A DNA stretch of 61,531 nucleotides, counting the filler, from Sphacelaria rigidula (taxonomy: Eukaryota), in assembly GCA_964200075.2 (NCBI GenBank). It is 7 parts of 7 records of this genome, joined end to end, with 100 filler letters (N's around TTAATTAATTAA, not from the genome) between each part and the next. Parts side by side here need not be neighbours in the genome. Positions count along the whole stretch, not along the records: positions 52,828 to 61,531 come from CAXNAA020010328.1; 6 more parts are not named here. One strand, given 5' to 3'. Numbering within the stretch: position 1 is the first letter of the stretch; every line of letters starts with the position of its first letter. The position numbers were made by a program, and so were the translations under genes. Positions 8,706 to 61,531 of the stretch are shown piece by piece. The notes beneath the pieces were generated by a model. The model was not told the DNA's origin and searched no databases. It worked only from the letters and a program-made list of their open reading frames with translations.

Positions 8706-8805
8706 NNNNNNNNNNNNNNNNNNNNNNNNNNNNNNNNNNNNNNNNNNNNTTAATTAATTAANNNNNNNNNNNNNNNNNNNNNNNNNNNNNNNNNNNNNNN
8801 NNNNN
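8706..8805. other. Artificial scaffold linker (44N-TTAATTAATTAA-44N)
   Basis: Six-frame stop spacer; identical 100-bp structure occurs six times. Confidence 0.99.
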
Positions 8806-17510: not shown

Positions 17511-17610
17511 NNNNNNNNNNNNNNNNNNNNNNNNNNNNNNNNNNNNNNNNNNNNTTAATTAATTAANNNNNNNNNNNNNNNNNNNNNNNNNNNNNNNNNN
17601 NNNNNNNNNN
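17511..17610. other. Artificial scaffold linker
   Basis: 44N-TTAATTAATTAA-44N. Confidence 0.99.
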
Positions 17611-26315: not shown

Positions 26316-26415
26316 NNNNNNNNNNNNNNNNNNNNNNNNNNNNNNNNNNNNNNNNNNNNTTAATTAATTAANNNNNNNNNNNNNNNNNNNNNNNNNNNNN
26401 NNNNNNNNNNNNNNN
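26316..26415. other. Artificial scaffold linker
   Basis: 44N-TTAATTAATTAA-44N. Confidence 0.99.
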
Positions 26416-27901: not shown

Positions 27902-29194
27902 GTGAGAAATAGGTTTCGCTTGGGGTATGGTCTGACCACTGTATTTTTTTGTCACACTTTGAACCTCTCCCCTTTGTTTGGGGTACATCAGATGGTAGTG
28001 AGAAAAAGGTTGCTATGCTGAGAGATAAGATGGCGGCCACAAACGGGCGAGACAGGAAGGGGGATAAGCTATGTAACAGGTTTTCGTGTGATGTGTAGAA
28101 GAAACGTCATGAGCGCCCAAATGTTGGCGGCATTTTGTTCTGTGGATACCCACCACAGGATTATACAGATTGAAAATGGACATACGGAATCTTCACGAGC
28201 ATCGAAATGTAATCGACATTAAAAAGCAAATGCACTCTCCGGCGGTTGGTTATATGTGATTTCGCTCGTCCTCGAAAGAATCCATGCGCAATTGAAGAAT
28301 AAATCCCGTTTTTTAACTGACCTTTTTTTGGACCTCCGTTCATCCCCGCAGCAGAAATTGGTGTTGATTTTCCAAAAATTCCCTGTTGACGCGGAATTTT
28401 ACAGAAAATGCGGATGGACTTCCCTGGGGGTAAGCGAGGCCGCACATCACGGCCGGATAGTGCATTCCATTTCGTTCTCGGAGACTATTTCGATGCTTTT
28501 TGTTAGATGGCTCCCAAAGTTCATCTCAGAACAAAGTCCATTATCAACTTGTACGATCCCCTGTCACGTGACGTACCCTACCGTAGGATGCCCTGTCCCG
28601 TCGGCAGTCGCAATCACGGGGTACTCGCGGTATCCGAGGTATTAGCGCGACTGAGTGTCTCGGGAACCGCAGTACTCGATTCACATTTTGCAGTGGGTGG
28701 CTCAGGTACCGTATTCTTTAGTACCCTGTATGTTCGGTTGGCAATGTTACTGGCTACCCTGAGTATCCGGTAGTGCCACAGCCCCGCAAACTCAGGAGAC
28801 TCACAGTCACAGTGGACACGATACGCTGCCATGACCACCTTCGAGCCTCGAACCAAGATGACCAAAGTGACTTTTTGTATTGCGCCTGCCTTTCGTAACG
28901 AGTTTTCTTCACGTGCATACTTCCGCGAGTTTCTGAATCATTGTTTTACTTTGCGTAGATTTTTTGGCTAATATGTTCGCTCTCAGAAAATAATGAGGGC
29001 TGCTGACGAAAGAGGGGGCTCATGTAAACCCGTACCTGAAGCGTGTCGCCGAAGGTTACAACCTCTCCCCCCGACATGATGGAGGAATGCGTGTTCAATG
29101 GTCAACTAGTGGAGCTCGGAAATGGTACCAGTATAACTGGCCATTATCATTATAATGGTAAAGATGGTAACGGTCACAGGATTTTTTTCGAGGG

Positions 29195-35119: not shown

Positions 35120-35219
35120 NNNNNNNNNNNNNNNNNNNNNNNNNNNNNNNNNNNNNNNNNNNNTTAATTAATTAANNNNNNNNNNNNNNNNNNNNNNNNN
35201 NNNNNNNNNNNNNNNNNNN
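35120..35219. other. Artificial scaffold linker
   Basis: 44N-TTAATTAATTAA-44N. Confidence 0.99.
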
Positions 35220-43625: not shown

Positions 43626-43923
43626 GATAATTGCTGGGGTATATCGATCACATAAGCTGATTGTCTAGCCTATATAACCCCCGATCCAAGGGGAGAAAAA
43701 CAGAGTTGTCACGGACGCTTCGTGTGTTGAGCAAATCTGGCAAGCAGGAACAATACCAGTGACTTTGGTGCTGTAAGAGTCTGGATATATTTCATTTTCC
43801 CCCCTTGCTCCGTCTCGAAAGGGATGCGTGGTCAATGGTCAAATGACTAAGGCAAGCAAGAAATGAGTACGCACAGAAACCACACCACCCACCCACACCA
43901 CACCCGCACCCACCCGACAGCAC

Positions 43924-44023
43924 NNNNNNNNNNNNNNNNNNNNNNNNNNNNNNNNNNNNNNNNNNNNTTAATTAATTAANNNNNNNNNNNNNNNNNNNNN
44001 NNNNNNNNNNNNNNNNNNNNNNN
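43924..44023. other. Artificial scaffold linker
   Basis: 44N-TTAATTAATTAA-44N. Confidence 0.99.
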
Positions 44024-51000: not shown

Positions 51001-51760
51001 CACGCTCAGTGTATGGACTGTATCGCCACTTGTACCCCGCTTGAGTTCGCTGATGTTGAGCTAGCTGGATGAGTTGCTCGCACCTATCGGTGTAAGATCT
51101 TATTGGCTACATGTCGATCGGTTTGCGCCCAACTGGGATTCGCGTGGGTCCGTTGGCTGCGAAGCAACCATGGAGCAGCATTGAGGTACATACGATGTTG
51201 TGGTCGAAGTCCGGCGAGTTGGGTGGCTGAAGGTGGACAGTAACATTGCGAACAAGCCCACGGCAATCTTGCCATGTGAGGATGTAGGCAATGCGCCTTT
51301 TGTCCGCAGGACGGTTCACGTTGGACGTGACCGATGTGCTTTCCTTGGGGGCGGGAAAAAAACGTGTTGACCAGGGCACGCCTGTCGTCACCCGCAAATT
51401 GTAGCGATGAAGTGGCGTTGTTGTCATTGGTTCGGGAGTCCCGGCCGTATGCCCCCACTATTTTACATCCCTCCACTCCTGTACTCACCTCAGCTCTAAC
51501 GCTAGCGTCCAAAATTATCAAGGTGTTCGTTGTGGACTCGGTTTTCAATGCTGTCCAGCTCAGCCCAGAAAATGTCTATCTCGTGTCTTAACTTGGATGT
51601 GTCTACAGGGGCATATGCATCGACGAACGTGGCAGCGTTTGGTTCGAGATTGAAAGTGATCGACATCAGGCATTCGGGTATGAGTGCCTGAGTCCACGTC
51701 GCCTTATTGATGATCGCCTCATTGACCGTCAACCCGACCCCATGTCGTTTACCCAATTCC
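48075..51760 (-). mobile_element. Long degraded RTE-clade LINE (APE endonuclease + reverse transcriptase + 3' region)
   Basis: HGVGL..AYAP..NTFF..DHNIV (APE); KATGPDGLSAELL, CGNYRGVSLVAHAGK..EKQCGF, LYVHDAG (decayed YADD), LSYGCATWTL; multiple frameshifts. Confidence 0.92.
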
Positions 51761-51789
51761 TTCCACTCTTCCGCCCCGTAGCGGCAGAA

Positions 51790-52525
51790 ACAATATCCCG
51801 GGACAACGGACTCGGTTCAGCGCCTTCATTGATGGGCAGTATTTCGTCCTTGTTTCCTCTTATCTCCTTCCATACTCCCTGGACTTCTCTATTACACCTA
51901 ATTCCGGCCAATCATTTCATCATTTTCTTCCATACAGCCCAATCAACTATGGCTGGCAATCTCTTTCTCTGCATGTGCTTCACGCTATATTGCCGTCGCA
52001 ATTTCATTATGTATCTGTTTCAAGTGATTGCATTCCGAACTCTGCCCTGAAAGCTGTATTACTCGTCGTTTTCGAGCACCCAAGAAATTTCTCAGCTGCT
52101 GCCATCTGTACTGCTTCCAGCTTCTCCACCTACTTCTCGTTCCCCCCCATGCTTCTCCTGCATATTCCAATTCTTGAACAGTCACGTTCATCAGGACACA
52201 TATCTTAATCCTGGTATTGAGGTGCGGGTCTCTCAGGATCACGTCCATCCTGCCTCTGTGCCTTACCCTTCCGTATTAGTTTCTTGATGTGTGCATCCCA
52301 AGAACAGAGTTTTGATAACTCCACGCCAAGGTATATATAATGGTCTCTGATCGGTGCGTCCTCCGTTCCCCACCTTCATTTGCACTTCACCGTATTTTTC
52401 TCATCCATGTTACACACGAGTACCGCGCATTTGTTGACGTTCGCTGTCACTCTCCATTTCCTAGTGTATTCTAGCACCTCCCCTATTTGCTTCTGCAACC
52501 CTTCTAGTGTTTCTGAGACTCTCAC
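51790..52525 (-). mobile_element. RT C-terminal fragment of a second LINE family
   Basis: SETLEGLQKQI..KWRVTANVNKC..YIYLGVE..LEYAGEAW; post-YADD RT domains. Probably the upstream part of family A (inference). Confidence 0.8.
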
Positions 52526-52559
52526 GAAATCAAAGAGGAAAAGGAGGAGGAGAGGGGGT

Positions 52560-52657
52560 GGGGTGCACTCATCATCATGCATGCCATAGTCATCAGACCA
52601 TTGACCTCGCATCCCTACAATTCCGAGACGGAGCACGCCGGGTTTTCGCCGGACCAA
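52560..52657 (-). mobile_element. Non-LTR family B tail with purine-rich TSD
   Basis: Flanked on both sides by AGGAGAGGGGG. Confidence 0.7.
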
Positions 52658-52727
52658 GGAGAGGAGAGGGGGGGGGGGGGGTGGATGTTGCTGGTCACCG
52701 TGCAAGCAAAAAAACTAAGACCATTGA

Positions 52728-52827
52728 NNNNNNNNNNNNNNNNNNNNNNNNNNNNNNNNNNNNNNNNNNNNTTAATTAATTAANNNNNNNNNNNNNNNNN
52801 NNNNNNNNNNNNNNNNNNNNNNNNNNN
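52728..52827. other. Artificial scaffold linker
   Basis: 44N-TTAATTAATTAA-44N. Confidence 0.99.
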
Positions 52828-54479
52828 TTTTCATCGCAATTCGCCGATTCTGTGAGCTTACAGCACTGACCGAAACCGTCATTTTCGCTGATGTTACCCC
52901 CCTCAAAAAGGGGGCAGAAAATGCACGTGAAGTGTCTCGCCTTCATCAATCTATTGGTCCTAACTTTGAGAGTCTCTCGATGATGAACATCTGGGCCGAA
53001 ATGGCAACCCCCAACCCCCCTTCCACTCTGAACGTCCATTAAAAATGATTGCACAATTCAAAGGAAACGGTAAATACGTAGCAGAAAAGACGAAATAAAT
53101 GAGTGCATACAGCAGAGACAAACATAAAGAGGACCGACGGAGTATCGAAGTCCAGTCAGCACGAGTCAATGTTGAGCACGACGGAAAACACCCACTTCGA
53201 TCTGTCATCATCCGATGGTGCCGCGGATGAGATTTTTTTTCTTGAGATGATGGGCATAATACATTCTGTACGATGTAGACTTTACGGTATAAAAGTAGTA
53301 CAATCAGTGCCAGGGTGTTGCAGCAGGCAAGAGTATTCGCAATATATGCCGTGGATTTTGCGAGCAGTACGACATTATAACTATAGGCTATGCTTCGCAA
53401 ACACGGTACAGCTGTAGTCTGTACTTGTTATCTTGTACTACTCCATGTCCGAGTACAGGTTGTACTGTCAGGTTACAAGCACGGGCCGTACTCGCGAGCA
53501 CAGTACGTAGCTGTGCTTTACCAATACAGTACAGTACTATACCTTCTTCACTGTGGGGTTCGAGGTCACATGCAGCTGCACGTCCATGGCAGTGGATGTA
53601 GATGCAGAGGATATGACTACTAACTACTGCCTGCACTACGGTACTACACATGAAGGCTCTAGTTTGTTTGCGCACATCCGTGACGGGCAGCCGATTCAAA
53701 ACATGTGGGCTCCCGAATTAAAAAAACAACAACGTGGGATCGGTCATGATAACAGGTTACGGTGGGAATAAGGATCCACCGATATAGGTGGATATAATTT
53801 TTGCGACACGTGAATGTAGGACACATGTATAGACAACAATACAGGAAAGTCCCTGATCGGTTTTGATCCCGCAGTCAAGTGCATGCAAAGTCAGTACAGT
53901 ATGTACCAGTATGTCTTCGACGAGCACCTTTCAGTTTCCGTAGTTACACGCACGCTGCTGATGTCTCTGCTTCGTGTTTCCCAACAACACTACAGACAGT
54001 GTGAAGCTGTGCTGGCAACGGGAGGAGGGTCAGGTACACCAGAAAGACTGCGAGCGGAGTCTTTAAATCCAAAAACAAATAGTTGACTTCTTCAGCTCTC
54101 CGGCTGTTCGTGAAACCCCCCTGCCCTCTGGGAACCCGCGAATGTTCCTGGACTATCAGCCGGTGAAACTGTGCGGACCACGGCCGCAAAACAGTAAAAC
54201 GGGATACAGTGATCGATTTCGATATCCAAACCTGTACCGGTTGTTTTCGCTGGGTACGATAGCAAGAAACAGTAAGCCGGTATGTGTCGGCCGGCGCTAC
54301 AGTAAAGCACGGTTACAGCAGACTGTGGTAACACACATTTTCGGTCTATTTTGACGTCGCGCTTGCCTAGTACAGTACCGCCGTATTTTGTGTGAAATCT
54401 ACATGATAATATGTTCGCTTTGCTACACGACAGCGGTAGTCACACATCTTCCCAAACTTGGCGACGAGATATAAGATAT

Positions 54480-55132
54480 TCACGTGGTTCTCGACACCGA
54501 TGGAGAACCCGGGTTCCTCTTGGCGTTCTCAACGAGGTTCTTCGACACAGCAAACGCTCTTGTGAAGAAACGATTACACACCACGCCGTCAGAAGCATAC
54601 ATTGACCCCATGTTTTTACCGGGTTTCTGATACGGCACGTCTCTCGAACCCAAGCCAGTCTTGCTTTGCGCGCGACGACATGACTGAGGTCCTCTTGCTC
54701 CGACGCCAACCTCTGAGCATCAAGCGTCCCTTCCACGAACCGTTCAACACAGCGTAGACGGCGACAGCACTCGAAACTCGATGCAAGCATATCTTGCAGT
54801 GCAATAGGCTGTGTGGGGAGAGGTGCACCCGCCACCGGAACGATCGACTCGAGAGGGGATTGCTCTTGCCTTCTTTTTGGAGTCAAGCCGCCCGTATGCC
54901 CACATGATTCGATGCTCCGCTCTGTGGGTTCAACCGAGGTCGCGAACAGGAGGCGGCCCGCCTCTGTAATCGGCATGAACGCACGCGTCACACTATTTCC
55001 TCTGGTAAGTGAGTATTTGAGAGAAGGCGATGTCGATACGTTGATGACAGCGTAGGCGGGGTGGTCATGTCTGGACAGCAAGAACGATGTTGGTGTTGTT
55101 CCACGTTTATATAACTCTTTCCGACACCACAA
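54480..55132 (-). pseudogene. Transposase-like N-terminal region (Sola-like), frameshifted
   Basis: FECCRRLRCVERF followed, after one frameshift near 54640, by VCNRFFTRAFAVSKNLVENAK; resembles the Cys cluster plus VCxxFFxxxxxISxxxV motif. No DDE core visible. Confidence 0.5.
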
Positions 55133-55642
55133 ACCAACGTGCCCTGACCGTCAGAATGTCGGGACAAATATCCTGTGGTCCTGTGTACAACTGACCATGT
55201 GCACCCGGAGCGTTATCAGAGAATGCGACACATGTCGACAAATATCGGAATCTTCAGGTCTTTTCACCTGCCTGACTGATGGGATTGTTTCAGTGGTACG
55301 GCACATGACACGCGACAAGTGGGTCACCATCCTACGGAAAGTGGAGCTCGTAAGAAAGACACCACTGTACTAGCTACTAAGCAAGATATTATCGAAGAAT
55401 ATGGCTTATTAGTACTCATGCGAGACTGATATGACCCAGATATGTTGTCGAATTCAGAGTACAGGTGGCGTTGTGGATAAAGGTGGGTAACGTGTCCCAA
55501 TCGTGACCTGCACTTAACCGCGATATTAGAACGTTCTCGCCCTCCCTCGCTCTACCCCCATCCCTTACACAACCCACTGCACTGCCGCCCGCAACCTGCA
55601 TACCACAACAGTGAAGAAGCAGGCAACGGTTGTTTCAGCCTA

Positions 55643-56054
55643 ATGGATTCCCCTGATGTCAGGAGTCAGCCGTCAGGGACAGTAGCGCCAGTACAGCGGA
55701 ACATGGAAACCCTTCTCACCAGCCACTACGTAGGTACGTTTCCGATAAAGTTATCTCAAATCGCCGTGACGTCCCTCACCCGCGAGCTGAACCCTCGTGG
55801 AGTGGAGAAGGTAATCACTTCGTTAAAGTCAAAGGGGTGGCTCACGCACAACCCGCCAGCCATAGTGATGCCGCATGAAGGTGTCCCGGAGAATGAAGGA
55901 ATAACGTCGGAGTTTCTCTCGACGTGCGAGTTTCGCTTCTTGGACGGAAATTGTCGGATATCCGCGGCGAGATCGGTTCTCGAGCAAGATCACAGCGTGT
56001 CGTGTCGAGTTGACCATGAGTTCGGCCCAGAGGTCATGCGAATCCTTGGCGACT
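55643..56054 (+). CDS. ParB/Sulfiredoxin-like domain protein, exon 1
   Basis: RELNPRGVEKVITSLKSKGWL..PPAIV..FRFLDGNCRISAAR (GxxRxxA); donor T|GTGAGT, phase 1. Confidence 0.75.
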
Positions 56055-57192
56055 GTGAGTCACCAAATTGATAGATGGTATTGTCTGTAGCCACGTGCCT
56101 CCGCAATCGTTTCGAGAGCATTGAACTATCTGATGCAAGGTGAAAAATTGGCGCACGGCCTAGGGTTTAAAAAACGCCAACGTAATGATTAGGTCATACG
56201 ATTTTAAGAATGTAAAAACAAACGTGTCGGGGTTGAGCGTGCACGCTGTGCATGAGGATGAGAACCCCGTTCTCCGCCTGTACCAGCCAGGGATGTCACG
56301 ACTGATCTCATTGGGGGGGGGGGGGGTTGTTGTGGCTACACACTAGTTTAGCGCCAGGAATTCAGGCTTGGCCTCTAACACGGCTCGTCCGCAGGTCTAT
56401 GATTCAAACGACGGTCCGCGTGTGCATGAGGTGTAGACTTTGGATCCTTGGCTACTTTTCCTCGTGTTTTTCTGGTACTGTTTTCATGCTTTTCGCCTCT
56501 TTTGTTTTCGTTTTCGGCGCAGTTTTGTTCTTGTTTTACGCCTCTTCCTTTTTTGTGTGCCTTTCTTCTTTTTCAGCCCCTAAAAAGAGGAAATCGGCGC
56601 CTCAAATGTTTCTATGCGCCTTTTCTCTTTTTCGGGCTCTAAAAACAACAGTATGGCCCTACACTTCGCAGACACGAGTATGCCGGCACATATACCCTTG
56701 CGTGGGCGCCTGGGTGCTTCTGGTTGTTGTCTTGCACACATGTTTGTCAGCGAGATTTCGTGCGTCTCACACACCCAATGACGTCCCTGCGGGAAATACC
56801 TGGGAGCCTTGCGACAAATCTGCGATGTTTTCCCGAAAGTTCCCAACTTCTATTCTTTGTTCTGCGATAATGTTTTACGGCCGTTTTTCTCCGACAAAAG
56901 GCAGAAATCTGTTTCGTTTCTCGCTTCTTTTGTTAACCCTGGTAAGGTGGGCCCTTCTCGCATTTTTGTGCATGGCAAGGCTGCGATTAGTCCAAACATT
57001 TTGCCATTTATAATCTTCAGCCTTCTCTCTGGGCCCTGTGCGAACACGTGGCGGCGGGGGGGGGGGGGGGGGGCAGTGGACGATCGTCATCGACGGGACG
57101 TGTTTAGGCGCATTTTGNNNNNNNNNNGCGGTTATTGCTCGCATTTTTGTCTCGGTTGTGCGCCCGCCCCCTGTGCCGGGCCCGGGGGGGCG

Positions 57193-57231
<39 letters not shown>

Positions 57232-58013
57232 ACGATCGTCATCGACGGGACGTGTTTAGGCGCATTTTGTTTAGACCTTTCGTTCAACTTTCAGATTCGA
57301 AACGAAAACAAAACAGAGAAGATTCCAACGCCACAGTTCTCAAGTAACATGCAGTCGGACTTACATTGTTCGGCTTGTCGACATTATCGACAGCTCGGCT
57401 GCCGCCATTTCTCATGCCGATTCTTATGGCAGGCAAGAATAATCTGACACGAACTGTTTATGTGATCCAGATGCGTCGGGTTACGGCCCGAACGCCGACG
57501 CCTTCGAATGTTGTGCTTCAGCCGTTAAGATTATTGCAGGACACCTTCGCGTTTTTTCTGGTGGCCGTTTTCGATTTTGGCCGAACGAACAACCTTGTAC
57601 GCGATTGTTGACACCTGCGATTGTATTGCTGCACTCGTTGAGACGGTTCCGAAACACCGTTGCGTTTTCCGGTGGCCGCAGGTGATTTTTGCAACAATCG
57701 CATTTTTGCCCAAGAAGAACGGTCTGTTGGATAAAACACGGGGCGTTTTGTTTCCCGGCTGACCGTGCACGGACCAACACACGAGTCTGGCAATGTTATA
57801 CCTCTATCCGCCTTCGAACGCAAAGTGTCTTGGGATCGTCCGAGCGAACACAGAATGGCATATGAAGGACCAAAGAGGCGACTTCATAGATTTATATTGT
57901 TGTTGCCCAGTATCAGCTGCGTCAGAGATGAAAACATTTCGAATAAAAAGTCTGGCACAACGGTGAATAATAACCGCGTCAACCGTTGCTGCTGCCTGCC
58001 TGCCTTCGAACAG

Positions 58014-58156
58014 CTTTAAACGATGTCGGCGAGACTCTGTCCCCCCGCAACACGTACGATAAGCTTTACATGTACGTTGGGATCATAACGTCGGTCCAAG
58101 AGAGGACGGGCAGTGATGCCGTTACGGGGGAGCAAATAGCAAAGGAGTTCACGAAC
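58014..58156 (+). CDS. ParB-like gene, exon 2
   Basis: CAG|CT...AAC|GTGAGT; phase 1 in gives ILGD-S-LNDVGETLSPRNTYDKL...GEQIAKEFTN. Confidence 0.7.
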
Positions 58157-58657
58157 GTGAGTAATGGAATGTAAAAGACGGGGTACTACAAAACCGGGCC
58201 TGCATTACACGGGGACGATAGTGGGCATTGGGTGAAGTTTAAAGTCGTATTGTATCTTATGTGTGCCGCGGGTCATTTATGGTACATCTCGGAACCGAAT
58301 CAACTCCGCTTATGCTGTTGTAAACTAGTTGCCAGAGGGTTCACGACGCGTGTACTGCGTCTCCCACCCGCTCATACGCCGAGAAACAATCCTGTGTGCA
58401 GCGACCACGACAGACCTCGACCACGTATGTAATGCAGCACGCACGACGGTCGCAGTGAAGTTGCCGCTCTGGAGCGGGGGGGCGACGATTCAATGTGGGG
58501 GCCGGTACCGATGTTCTGTTCAGTCGGGAGAAGTTGTGTACGGTAATATGAATCATTTTGAACTTCCACGGACGCTGAAATGATCGACTCGGATTCACCG
58601 CATCTGTTATATGTTTTTCTCCACGGTCCGTTGGTGTCCCCTCGTCACCGAAAACAG

Positions 58658-58878
58658 CTGGGTTTGAATTCTCTGTCGCTGGTGACGATGCGGCACTGGT
58701 GAAAGGCCTGCTTCGCCACTACACCGGAAGCAATGAAAGCCATTGCCTGGGCGTTCCAGGCGCCGGACCCCGGTATCGACGCGAAATGTATTTTGCTGAC
58801 GTACCTGAAAAGCAAGGCTTACGGCGATCTACACGCCAAACCCGCAGCGCAATCGATCGCGGTCAATATGCTCGTAAG
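58658..58878 (+). pseudogene. ParB-like gene, exon 3 (HTH-like; in-frame TGA at 58700)
   Basis: CAG|CTG...AG|GTATGC; LGLNSLSLVTMRHW*KAC... continues in frame; phase 0 in, phase 2 out. Confidence 0.6.
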
Positions 58879-59744
58879 GTATGCACCGCCGGTACACCCA
58901 GTCGCTTGTTGTGATAATCTCGAGTTACCTTCCATTAATTCGCCGCACCGAAGGATAACGAGAGTATGTCATGTGGTATGTGTCCTGTTTGATGGACCGC
59001 CAGGACCAATTATCCAGGGTATAACTACACATGCCCCCCCCTCCCCCCTCCGCTCGAAGCAGTCTATTTTCAAAATTGAGGATAGATTTTTTGGTAGAGG
59101 ACGAACCTCGGGAACCTTCATGAACATCGAAAAGGTTTCGAAATTAAAATTTAAAAGCATTCTCCGGCTATGATGTGCGACCTCACTCATCGTAGCAAAC
59201 TAAATATAAGATCGACAGTGTTTTGTACCAGAATCACTGGAGGACGATATCGTTCCGTGTAAACACCGGAGGTCACGAATTGCAGATGGCTGTTTTCGAG
59301 GATGAGCGAGGCCACATTTCACAGGCGGAGAGTATAGATGTGTCTTTATTTCAAATGTATCGCGATGCTTACGAAAGATCCCAAGGACGGCACCCAAACA
59401 ACACCCATCCTCGATTTTCGACCGTACCACGACAGACATTCGAGGGCGAACAAGATTACACCCACACCGAAAGATTGAGATTGGATCACCAAAAACGCCC
59501 GCATCGCGCACAACCTGGTGGAGAGAAGCGAGAGCGTGGTACCTCGTCTTGCTTGGACGGACAGGTTTAAGAAGTGAGTGCCGTTAATCTGTAGCCCGGC
59601 CACCGCCCGAGGTAAGGCCCTCTGTCTATATCGAGACCACATAAGACTGCGCCGCCGTGTGCGTAAATATCACTGCACACTAGTCGACCTGTCACAGAAT
59701 GTGGTGCGACGTTTGATGTTTTCGATTCCGATTTCTGTGAACAG

Positions 59745-60372
59745 CGGCGTGCACAAAATGATAGACGGTACGTACGGGTTGGAAGATGTCCAGCTGTTCG
59801 TGGGGGACTATATATCGTCCGTGGACAAGACGATATCAGAGACAAGAGAAAGCTTGCCGGCTGAAGAACAGGAAGGCGATGCCATGAAGGAATTTGAGGC
59901 GGTCTACAAGGGAAGACTTCAACGGCCCTTGGAGCTGGTGCGTTACTCCCCGTCGGTAGTCGACTCTATCCTAAGAAAGTTGAGACATATATTCGCTGTC
60001 GCGAGCTGATCGGTGACCGACCTCGATGCTCAGGTACGGAAGTCAACTGTATCTTTCCCGGTAGTACTGGTTGAGGAGTGTAAAACACCACCGCCTGTAT
60101 ACAGCTGCACTCCAGAGACAAAGCAGAGCCAAGAGTTCCCCGACCGCCCGCCGTCGCCACCATGGAAGAGCAAAGGTGCAGAGATCGCAGATCCAGACGA
60201 GCGTTTCCTCGTGTGAAAACAGTCGCCGTTGAATTTCATCTTTTCAGCACGTGTCTCTCAGCGAGTGTCCTTGATCACATAACCCTTACTCCCCCGCGGA
60301 TACACCAACGCAGCAAAAGACCGATCGGTTGGCAACTATGGCTTTGTAGCGTTCATACTCTCGGAGTACACC
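59745..60372 (+). pseudogene. ParB-like gene, exon 4 (3' boundary uncertain; in-frame stops at 60007, 60214, 60280)
   Basis: GAACAG|C completes phase 2; GVHKMIDG...helical region. Candidate donors after 60033 or 60372. Confidence 0.5.
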
Positions 60373-60958
60373 GTGAGAGTGTTCCTACGTCAGGGTGGGG
60401 GAGGGGAGGGGTGTGGCGGCGCAAGGCAATACCATAGGTCTCAATCAGACGCCAACATTCGATATATATTATCGTCTTCTATACTGTGTTTGTTTGTTAC
60501 CACTCTTGTAATACTTGCGGTTCGTTTGTGCCACGATTCGTCGAATCTGACAATGTTCCGATGTAGATATGGCCGACGAGTTATAAACAATATAACTCCG
60601 TCATAGTACCGCGGGGTATATGTCGGCGACACTTGGAGGTAGCCCACTGTGTGTCCCAGGTAGATGGACGGGAAAAAATGTTTTGGAGCCATGCCGTGCT
60701 CCCCCCCCCCCGCAAGAGTTGCGCTCGTAACAAAAACACATCACAGGTTAACGCAATGAGGAGACCATAAATCAAAGGGAGTCGATGTTAACTGCAGGCT
60801 AATAAATATGGAAGCGGAAATACGTAATAATACCCCCTCGGGTAGGATTCGTGTGTCGACGGTGCTTTTGTTGTCTGCCTCAGGATCGCACTTCACTCGC
60901 GTTCTTACGTCGGATATCGATATGTACCGTGTGGGATGGCCTTAGTTTTTTCGCACAG

Positions 60959-61226
60959 GCGCAAGAGTTCTACCACGCACGCGGAAAGCCTACTTCGTAG
61001 AGGGTGTGAGCTCATCGATGGAGGCGACTCACTGGCTGTGGCACGCCATCCGAAGCTTATCCTCGTCTCCTTGGATGCCGAGAAAAGCATCCTGACACTT
61101 ACAGACGACCACGTCAAGAGATACTTCAAGCGGTTCGTGGGCAAACTGCTGAGCACCTTGCATCCTTCGGGGACGATCGCATTTGCCGTGCTCGGCCGTG
61201 GTTTCCGCGTACAAATCGAATCAGAG
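60959..61226 (+). CDS. Putative exon 5, amino-methyltransferase-like segment
   Basis: TTTTTTCGCACAG| ... GAG|GTGCC; ELIDGGDSLAV..PKLILVSLD..YFKRFVGKLLSTLHPSGTIAFAV. Confidence 0.45.
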
Positions 61227-61249
61227 GTGCCACTGCACACGCAATACAT

Positions 61250-61531
61250 GGAGGGGGAAATGCGGGATTGAAATGAAGGTGGTATGGACTCGTTTGGTAC
61301 TTGGAATTGTAGCGAGGAAACGATCGCTATACTCGGAGATAGATGGTGGCCACAGAAGGTGAAGCAGGAAGGGGATAAGATATGTCAAGAAGTTTGTGTC
61401 ATGCATAGAAGAAACGTCATGAGTGCCCAAATTTTGGAGGTATTTATTAGGTGCAGGAACGGTGCTCCGGCTTTGTGTCGCGCGGTCAATGGTCAAATGG
61501 CGAAGGCAAGCAAAAAACGAGTATGCCCCCC
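61250..61531 (+). mobile_element. 3' end of non-LTR family A
   Basis: TIAILGDRWWPQKVKQEGDKIC...GGTCAATGGTCAAATGGCGAAGGCAAGC, ending in CCCCC; aligns with 1-265. Confidence 0.8.

Follow-up and report, generated by a model that had tools for sequence, protein, structure and literature searches.

An unannotated Cys4-helix-turn-helix gene lies head-to-head with a ParB-like gene in a decayed multi-copy repeat of the brown alga Sphacelaria rigidula

Accessory genes with ParB-like domains have recently (2025) been reported on giant DNA transposons of Ectocarpus and red algae, and the proposal is that through them the transposon can bind its own DNA and change it epigenetically (PMC12477816; bioRxiv 10.1101/2025.02.11.637652). 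Here, we analyze a 61,531-nucleotide stretch, called the window, from the brown alga Sphacelaria rigidula, where a minus-strand gene (gene A) stands head-to-head with a plus-strand ParB-like gene (gene B). We read the locus, with moderate confidence, as a decayed internal two-gene fragment of a high-copy element, most likely a large (>8 kb) DNA transposon. The new item of this locus is gene A, which belongs to a real, so far unannotated family with four invariant cysteines and a helix-turn-helix part (Cys4-HTH). The architecture is of an already published kind, with a ParB-like gene opposite the transposase in an Ectocarpus element and a ParB-domain gene in red-algal Plavaka elements.

The Ectocarpus report describes giant KDZ, EnSpm and Sola-1 elements (PMC12477816). 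Its family Sola1-1_Ec32 is 21.5 kb long and has 1989 copies, 2 of which are intact. The termini are AACCG-CGGTT with a 282-bp imperfect terminal inverted repeat (TIR) and a 4-bp target-site duplication (TSD), and a ParB-like and methyltransferase gene lies on the strand opposite the transposase. The same source also describes giant families whose genes show no transposase homology.

Like Sola1-1_Ec32 as described there, the present locus is part of a high-copy brown-algal element with mostly decayed copies and spliced genes, in which the ParB-like gene and another gene of the element occupy opposite strands. The two differ in the accessory protein, which in Sola1-1_Ec32 has 1104 amino acids (aa) with an N4C/N6A DNA methyltransferase, whereas about 300 aa are recognizable here with no methyltransferase signal. 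They differ also in the partner, a recognized Sola-1 transposase there and a protein without detectable transposase homology here. The Sola1-1_Ec32 termini have no counterpart in the 8.7-kb piece that holds the locus, and the likeness drawn here is one of description.

In the red alga Bostrychia moritziana, PAG3 of the giant Plavaka transposons has a ParB N-terminal domain and a 2-oxoglutarate (2OG) oxygenase, the repeats beside it are proposed as its binding sites, and ParB-domain accessory genes ride on Plavaka and Mutator elements, according to that preprint (bioRxiv 10.1101/2025.02.11.637652). Similarly to PAG3, motif repeats adjoin the ParB-like gene here, in its upstream spacer. The PAG3 repeats are tandem arrays of inverted repeats, however, whereas the 10-mer here has two or three copies in direct orientation, and the searches revealed no oxygenase domain. 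Gene B lies on a multi-copy piece head-to-head with gene A, as the algal ParB accessory genes adjoin element genes. The fusion to a DNA- or chromatin-modifying domain, typical of the algal ParB accessory proteins, was not seen in this piece.

Two other systems invite comparison. DUF3723 (PF12520) is a conserved accessory gene of the fungal Starships, its function given as unknown (PMC9156397). The first exon of gene B has language-model features close to it (0.95), and DUF3723 too is an accessory gene on large cargo-bearing elements, but there is no hidden Markov model (HMM) match to PF12520 and no sign here of the Starship DUF3435 tyrosine recombinase. PIF/Harbinger, with a transposase and a Myb-like protein, is our working analogy for an element that encodes one protein for catalysis and another for sequence-specific DNA binding. 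In Ectocarpus the Harbinger genes are described as tail-to-tail (PMC12477816), in contrast to the head-to-head pair here, and neither a DDE nor a Myb domain of Harbinger was detected.

The window consists of seven pieces of about 8.7 kb each, and the locus is on the last one, 52828-61531 (8,704 bases). The pieces are joined by linkers of N44 + 12 bases + N44 at 8706-8805, 17511-17610, 26316-26415, 35120-35219, 43924-44023 and 52728-52827, so adjoining pieces have no physical linkage. Both genes are within one piece between N linkers. Its sole gap, 10 N at 57118-57127, is inside the first intron of the ParB-like gene and outside the intergenic spacer, and the scaffold linkage of the two genes asserted in the original prediction is upheld. 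No copy of either gene was found in the other six pieces by tblastn and blastn.

Gene A and its parts are located as follows.

54483..54976, minus strand: conserved coding stretch of gene A, probably its first exon, a pseudogene in this copy (phmmer, 14 relatives; alignment A1)
54737..54775, minus strand: CCx4Cx3F box (FECCRRLRCVERF), with C8, C9, C14 and F18 invariant in 14/14 rows of alignment A2 and likewise in the window row
54531..54581, minus strand: VCNRFFTRAFAVSKNLV, the predicted hairpin and helix-turn-helix part, with V71, C72, F75 and F76 invariant in A2 (alignment and structure model)
54639..54641, minus strand: one-base deletion (frameshift), from single-frame homologues and a G insertion in other copies

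Gene A begins with the ATG at 54976 and continues through a low-complexity linker into the Cys4 box and then the helix-turn-helix part. The box FECCRRLRCVERF is in a stop-to-stop minus-strand open reading frame (ORF) of 236 aa (54440-55150), and VCNRFFTRAFAVSKNLV is in an overlapping minus-strand ORF of 79 aa (54480-54719). That the two belong together across a single frameshift had been proposed before and is real. The window matches the relatives only via two frames, the first holding CC, C, F and L and the second P, G, VC and FF (A1), and the 13 homologues run through both motifs in a single frame.

Contigs of other copies have a G inserted behind 54640 in three runs (3 in X1, 3 in X3 and 2 in X4). 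With the extra G, the minus strand reads AWVREHVPYQKPGKN, comparable to WVREHVPF in the relative P0006. Because other genomic copies carry the frame-restoring G and the homologues read through, the frameshift is a one-base loss specific to this copy.

The start of the gene had been put at 55132, and we move it to ATG 54976. The window reads MPITEAGRLLF from there and three relatives (P0005, P0006 and P0008) share such a beginning of the type MPLTNAGRLLF or MPITDAGRFLF, generally MP(L/I)T(N/D)AGR(L/F)LF. At the other end, the ORF stops at TGA 54480-54482, within GTGAAT, 9 residues past the AKRNP-type motif. Other copies have GTGAGT at this end (loose end at 54509), a sequence consistent with a splice donor followed by further exons.

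Among 1.84 billion representatives, phmmer found 14 members of the gene A family at E<=0.001, of which 3 reach E<=1e-10, with lengths of 107-292 aa. One is the model of the locus itself, and the other 13 have E from 1e-12 to 6e-4. The CC box is present in all 13, and VCN..FF..AFGVS...I..AKRNP follows in the same frame in 10 (A1). Eleven positions are invariant over the 14 sequences (A2), namely C8, C9, C14, F18, L28, P53, G62, V71, C72, F75 and F76. The family signature CCx4C...F...L...P...G...VC..FF is found in the window with the order of elements kept.

Past the AKRNP-type motif, the protein ends after 7-16 residues in 9/13 relatives and after 51 in one, and the alignment is lost earlier in three. 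The longer relatives are extended solely at the N-terminus. The family is multi-copy also in other assemblies, where one 90% cluster has 12 members (n=12) and one member occurs on 15 contigs.

Domain libraries hold no counterpart. Pfam gave 0 families for the gene A peptide and its other-frame ORFs, and the Pfam cut-off was reached by 0/14 of the relatives. There was no PHROGs or NCBIfam match, and the PDB sequence search with the gene A profile returned none at E<=10. Alignment A3 had no match in JGI metagenomes, IMG/VR or prokaryotic genomes. A Protein Atlas search with the 236-aa ORF reached a best score of 0.82 with low recognition (1072) and gave no lead. The sole metagenome locus for P0016 (L001) was discarded as spurious, its match being limited to a 26-residue proline-rich stretch.

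The AlphaFold2 model from the 14-sequence alignment has a mean predicted local distance difference test score (pLDDT) of 72.8 and a predicted template modeling score (pTM) of 0.62. Three helices, a hairpin (64-71) and two more helices (73-80 and 84-92) are predicted in it. Foldseek with this Cys4-HTH model found none at E<=0.001 in PDB or BFVD. With VIA-align, the best rows came from Spo0J/ParB (Z 4.0) and KorB (Z 3.8), in each case the DNA-binding domain and in each case weak, and no row had Z>=5. These rows suggest a generic helix-turn-helix resemblance only, weakly so, for the modeled fold.

With its four invariant cysteines (CCx4C...C) and predicted helix-turn-helix, the gene A domain of about 110 residues may be a zinc-stabilized, sequence-specific DNA-binding domain.

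Public data on gene A in this species include P0004, an annotated S. rigidula partial model of 107 aa that is 100% identical to the locus. It removes about 54756-54869 as an intron, that is, the CC-box coding stretch. A 374-nt contig of X6 spans 54549-54921 ungapped and unspliced with one difference; X6 is only guessed to be RNA and allows no conclusion on expression. The public model probably mis-splices the gene A pseudogene. There is also a variant with about 231 bases from 54637/54639 to 54871, including the CC box, replaced by 8-10 letters, in X6 (1 contig, depth 173.5) and X3 (65.6), so some copies lack the Cys box.

The exons of the ParB-like gene were traced with P0003, a 301-aa S. rigidula paralogue whose tblastn blocks are at 55643-56056, 58013-58159, 58655-58885 and 59353-59571.

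55643..56054, plus strand: ParB-like exon 1 (MDSPDV...RILGD), followed by GTGAGT; 91% identity to P0003 over 138 aa
56055..58013, plus strand: ParB-like intron 1 (GT..AG), with poly-G runs, the 10-N gap and a 68-nt duplication; from the ends of the tblastn high-scoring pairs
58014..58156, plus strand: ParB-like exon 2 (LNDVGETLS...KEFTN), followed by GTGAGT; tblastn with P0003, 96% over 49 aa
58655..58885, plus strand: region of the third ParB-like exon, interrupted in frame by a stop (MRHW*K); 75% to P0003 over 77 aa by tblastn
59353..59571, plus strand: region of the fourth ParB-like exon, likewise interrupted in frame by a stop (PKD*DW); 59% to P0003 over 73 aa by tblastn

The gene is multi-exon, with at least 4 exons, and AG precedes exon 2. 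The window has LDGNCRISAAR where the paralogue has LDGNHEISAAR, so that a Cys replaces the His of DGNHR in the window. Both resemble what we take to be the ParB DG-x-HR motif, each copy being changed at a different residue. The nearest language-model neighbors of exon 1 are hypothetical proteins of Cnidaria (0.96) and DUF3723 clusters (0.95, 8/30 matches), and a further Atlas cluster, 11% of whose members have ParB_N, is at 0.93.

Three side observations concern this gene. At 59578-60006 of the plus strand, 3′ of the last recognized exon, there is a 143-aa open frame that is coding-like by eye (e.g. KMIDGTYGLEDVQLFVGDYISSVDK), has no Pfam match and may be a further ParB-like exon. A 68-nt direct duplication (57050-57117 and 57202-57269, 97%) after long poly-G runs flanks the 10-N gap and looks like an assembly artefact at a homopolymer. 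Lastly, contigs of X1 (3), X3 (2) and X4 (3) join 55623 to 57984 and omit exon 1 and intron 1. The short side of these joins has 25-38 letters, the letters between are not known, and CAAC(G/C)GTTG is found at both 55624-55632 and 57970-57978. They may reflect copies that lack the ParB-like exon, or arise from the alignment.

The two genes diverge from a spacer with these features.

54977..55642, no strand: spacer between the divergent ATGs, 666 bp (ATG coordinates)
55152..55247, plus strand: two direct copies (55152-55172 and 55218-55247) of CAGA(GA)ATG...GACAAATATC (exact 10-mer search)

About 510 bp had been estimated for this distance; with the ParB-like ATG at 55643 and the gene A start corrected as above, it is 666 bp from ATG to ATG. 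The repeated motif reported in it was recovered, its exact 10-mer GACAAATATC occurring at 55163 and 55237 and nowhere else in the whole window, and a third exact SGACAAATMT is at 56812. With one mismatch allowed, neither motif pattern is enriched (5 found vs 3.9 expected; 16 vs 13.2), so the statistical weight of the spacer motif is modest. The spacer is a candidate shared control region or bidirectional promoter.

The locus is repetitive over its whole length. Contigs matching the piece at >=80% likeness number 8747 in X1, 9923 in X3 and 8228 in X4, most of them less than 95% alike. By likeness, those of X1 divide into 433 (>=99), 1255 (95-99), 3275 (90-95) and 3784 (<90). The contigs cover 30/30 bins of the piece. 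Since diverged contigs match every part of the piece in their thousands, and do so in three runs, the locus is a multi-copy repeat.

Both genes are decayed, as had been noticed. Gene A has one frameshift, and the ParB-like gene has two in-frame stops besides the Cys-for-His change. Since both are dead here, mobility, if any, would have to come from intact copies elsewhere.

Of the dead two-gene transposon originally proposed, the decay holds, the multi-copy repeat and a precedent in the Ectocarpus report (PMC12477816) support it, and the transposase domain and the termini were not found. In the transposon reading that we favor, the two genes would be transcribed outward from the 666-bp spacer. 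Gene B would be the multi-exon ParB-like accessory gene of the element, and gene A would be either a 5′ exon of its transposase or a separate DNA-binding accessory protein. Mobility, DNA binding and the transposon superfamily are what we infer here. By analogy with Sola1-1_Ec32 of Ectocarpus, Sola-1 is the leading candidate for the superfamily, tentatively so.

Several results weigh against this reading. The minus-strand peptide, previously called transposase-like, shows no homology to any named transposase in Pfam or phmmer searches. No gene A relative longer than 292 aa was found. The 79-aa ORF found none among proteins of 140-2000 aa and profile A2 none among those of 512-2000 aa, proteins of about 300-512 aa being covered by the phmmer search alone. 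Pfam cut-offs are reached by 0/57 scanned ORFs, 4 at the locus and a further 53 out of the 68 in the piece that have >=70 aa.

The TIR, TSD and DDE core expected of such an element did not turn up within the piece. Self-blastn and an inverted-repeat search revealed no TIR in 52828-61531, although the element may extend past the contig. The best inverted pair in the piece is of 18-22 nt and either poly-G/poly-C or 83% matched. One candidate, 54073-54090 with 60039-60056 (18 nt, 83%), was rejected as short and imperfect, with matching contigs continuing on both sides. No TSD was identified in the piece and the element ends were not located in it. No DDE core was found in the piece either, which ends 1.6 kb past the gene A ORF.

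The ParB side has its own difficulties. Pfam has no family at E<=1 for exon 1 and none at E<=10 for P0003, including PF02195 and PF12520. PHROGs and NCBIfam gave no match for the ParB-like gene, and PDB sequences none at E<=10. Prokaryotic genomes had no match to P0003. The P0003 structure model, built from 2 sequences, has a pLDDT of 45 and is unusable. The ParB likeness of gene B draws on language-model neighbors and a motif likeness and is unconfirmed. No methyltransferase or oxygenase Pfam domain was detected in P0003 or the plus-strand ORFs up to 61531, past which the gene may run, and no (D/N/S)PP(Y/F/W/H) motif occurs in a plausible context within the piece. As to the repeat itself, contig depth does not give a copy number when summed, and the records do not say what kind of runs X1 and X4 are.

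Among more specific explanations, gene A may be the N-terminal exon of a Sola-1 DDD transposase, and the pair a dead Sola element with ParB-like cargo, homologous to Sola1-1_Ec32. We regard this as possible, at less than an even chance. The same algal class has a ParB-like gene opposite a Sola-1 transposase, as described in the report (PMC12477816). The end of the gene A ORF in GTGAAT, or GTGAGT in other copies, fits a splice donor with further exons. Of the homologues, 9/13 stop shortly past the AKRNP motif.

On the other hand, the 1.6 kb 3′ of the ORF has nothing coding-like by eye and no Pfam match, and nothing comparable to the 1104-aa accessory protein with methyltransferase reported from Ectocarpus (PMC12477816) was found in this piece. 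Nor is a ParB gene specific to Sola, since Plavaka and Mutator elements carry ParB accessory genes too. We know of no Sola-specific Pfam model. The literature search gave nothing useful on Sola N-termini, including the Sola-naming passage of bioRxiv 10.1101/2021.09.26.461848.

Alternatively, gene A may be complete and encode a small protein of about 160-290 aa that binds DNA on its own, as an accessory or a regulator of the element, with the transposase elsewhere or absent, as in a non-autonomous giant element. Plavaka PAG1 and the second, Myb-like gene of Harbinger would then be similar cases. All 14 of the relatives have 107-292 aa, the longer ones being extended only N-terminally, and no longer protein was found; moreover, Ectocarpus has giant families without transposase-homologous genes, as its report states (PMC12477816). 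However, the relatives are mostly from ENA, Logan and JGI assemblies, where a first exon ended by an intron stop would give the same lengths, and the GTGAGT of other copies suggests splicing. This alternative is possible, with a slightly lower chance than the Sola-1 reading.

A bolder idea is that the Cys4-HTH and ParB-like proteins form a conserved two-gene DNA-binding module, with its own binding sites in the spacer, of an undescribed class of giant algal elements. Such elements might have no DDE transposase, or the Cys4-HTH might be a new DNA-binding head of their transposase, and the module would mark or partition its own DNA rather than cut it. We consider this unlikely.

The pair might also be a non-mobile divergent gene pair of the host, expanded by tandem or segmental duplication and now decaying. 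A brown-algal genome study reports that these genomes favor adjacent opposite-strand genes (bioRxiv 10.1101/2024.02.19.579948), and in our locus the introns are retained and no termini were found. Against it, the whole 8.7 kb is matched in three runs by diverged contigs numbering in the thousands, both genes have disabling mutations, and other assemblies, too, have multiple copies of the gene A family. The published genes that come closest to the ParB-like one are all transposon-borne. The host pair is thus improbable.

Viruses, too, can carry ParB-like domains. Integrated Phaeovirus-like sequence is present in brown algae including Sphacelariales (bioRxiv 10.1101/2024.02.19.579948). That the locus is a piece of such an endogenous giant virus is hardly credible. 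Neither gene has a relative in IMG/VR, there is no BFVD fold match at E<=0.001 and no PHROGs match, the ParB-like gene has spliceosomal-type introns, and the copy number is high.

If the locus is the transposon fragment that we favor, the pattern of ParB accessory genes extends to a second brown-algal order, Sphacelariales. The ParB-like gene is paired here with a conserved Cys4-HTH domain absent from domain libraries. Should this domain be the DNA-binding head of a brown-algal Sola-1 transposase, it would be an annotation handle for elements that repeat masking hides from gene prediction. Should it be a separate partner of the ParB-like protein, the two would make a two-protein DNA-recognition module, directly testable on the shared spacer.

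The contig is bounded by other repeats.

52828..53118, no strand: left contig end, a different and far more abundant repeat (summed depth about 10x that of neighboring bins, 3 runs)
61267..61531, no strand: right contig end, a different and far more abundant repeat (depth table; blastn copies in other window pieces)

With both ends in other, more abundant repeats, the unit of interest may extend past the contig. The short repeat at the right end (61279-61531) is found by blastn also at 10-269 (73%), 27992-28135 (79%), 43826-43872 (87%) and other places, with 73-90% overall. Contig breaks are frequent at 61309 and 61385, inside this right-end repeat. On the previous piece, which is another contig, minus-strand ORFs at 51592-52714 resemble by eye a reverse transcriptase of the long interspersed nuclear element (LINE) type.

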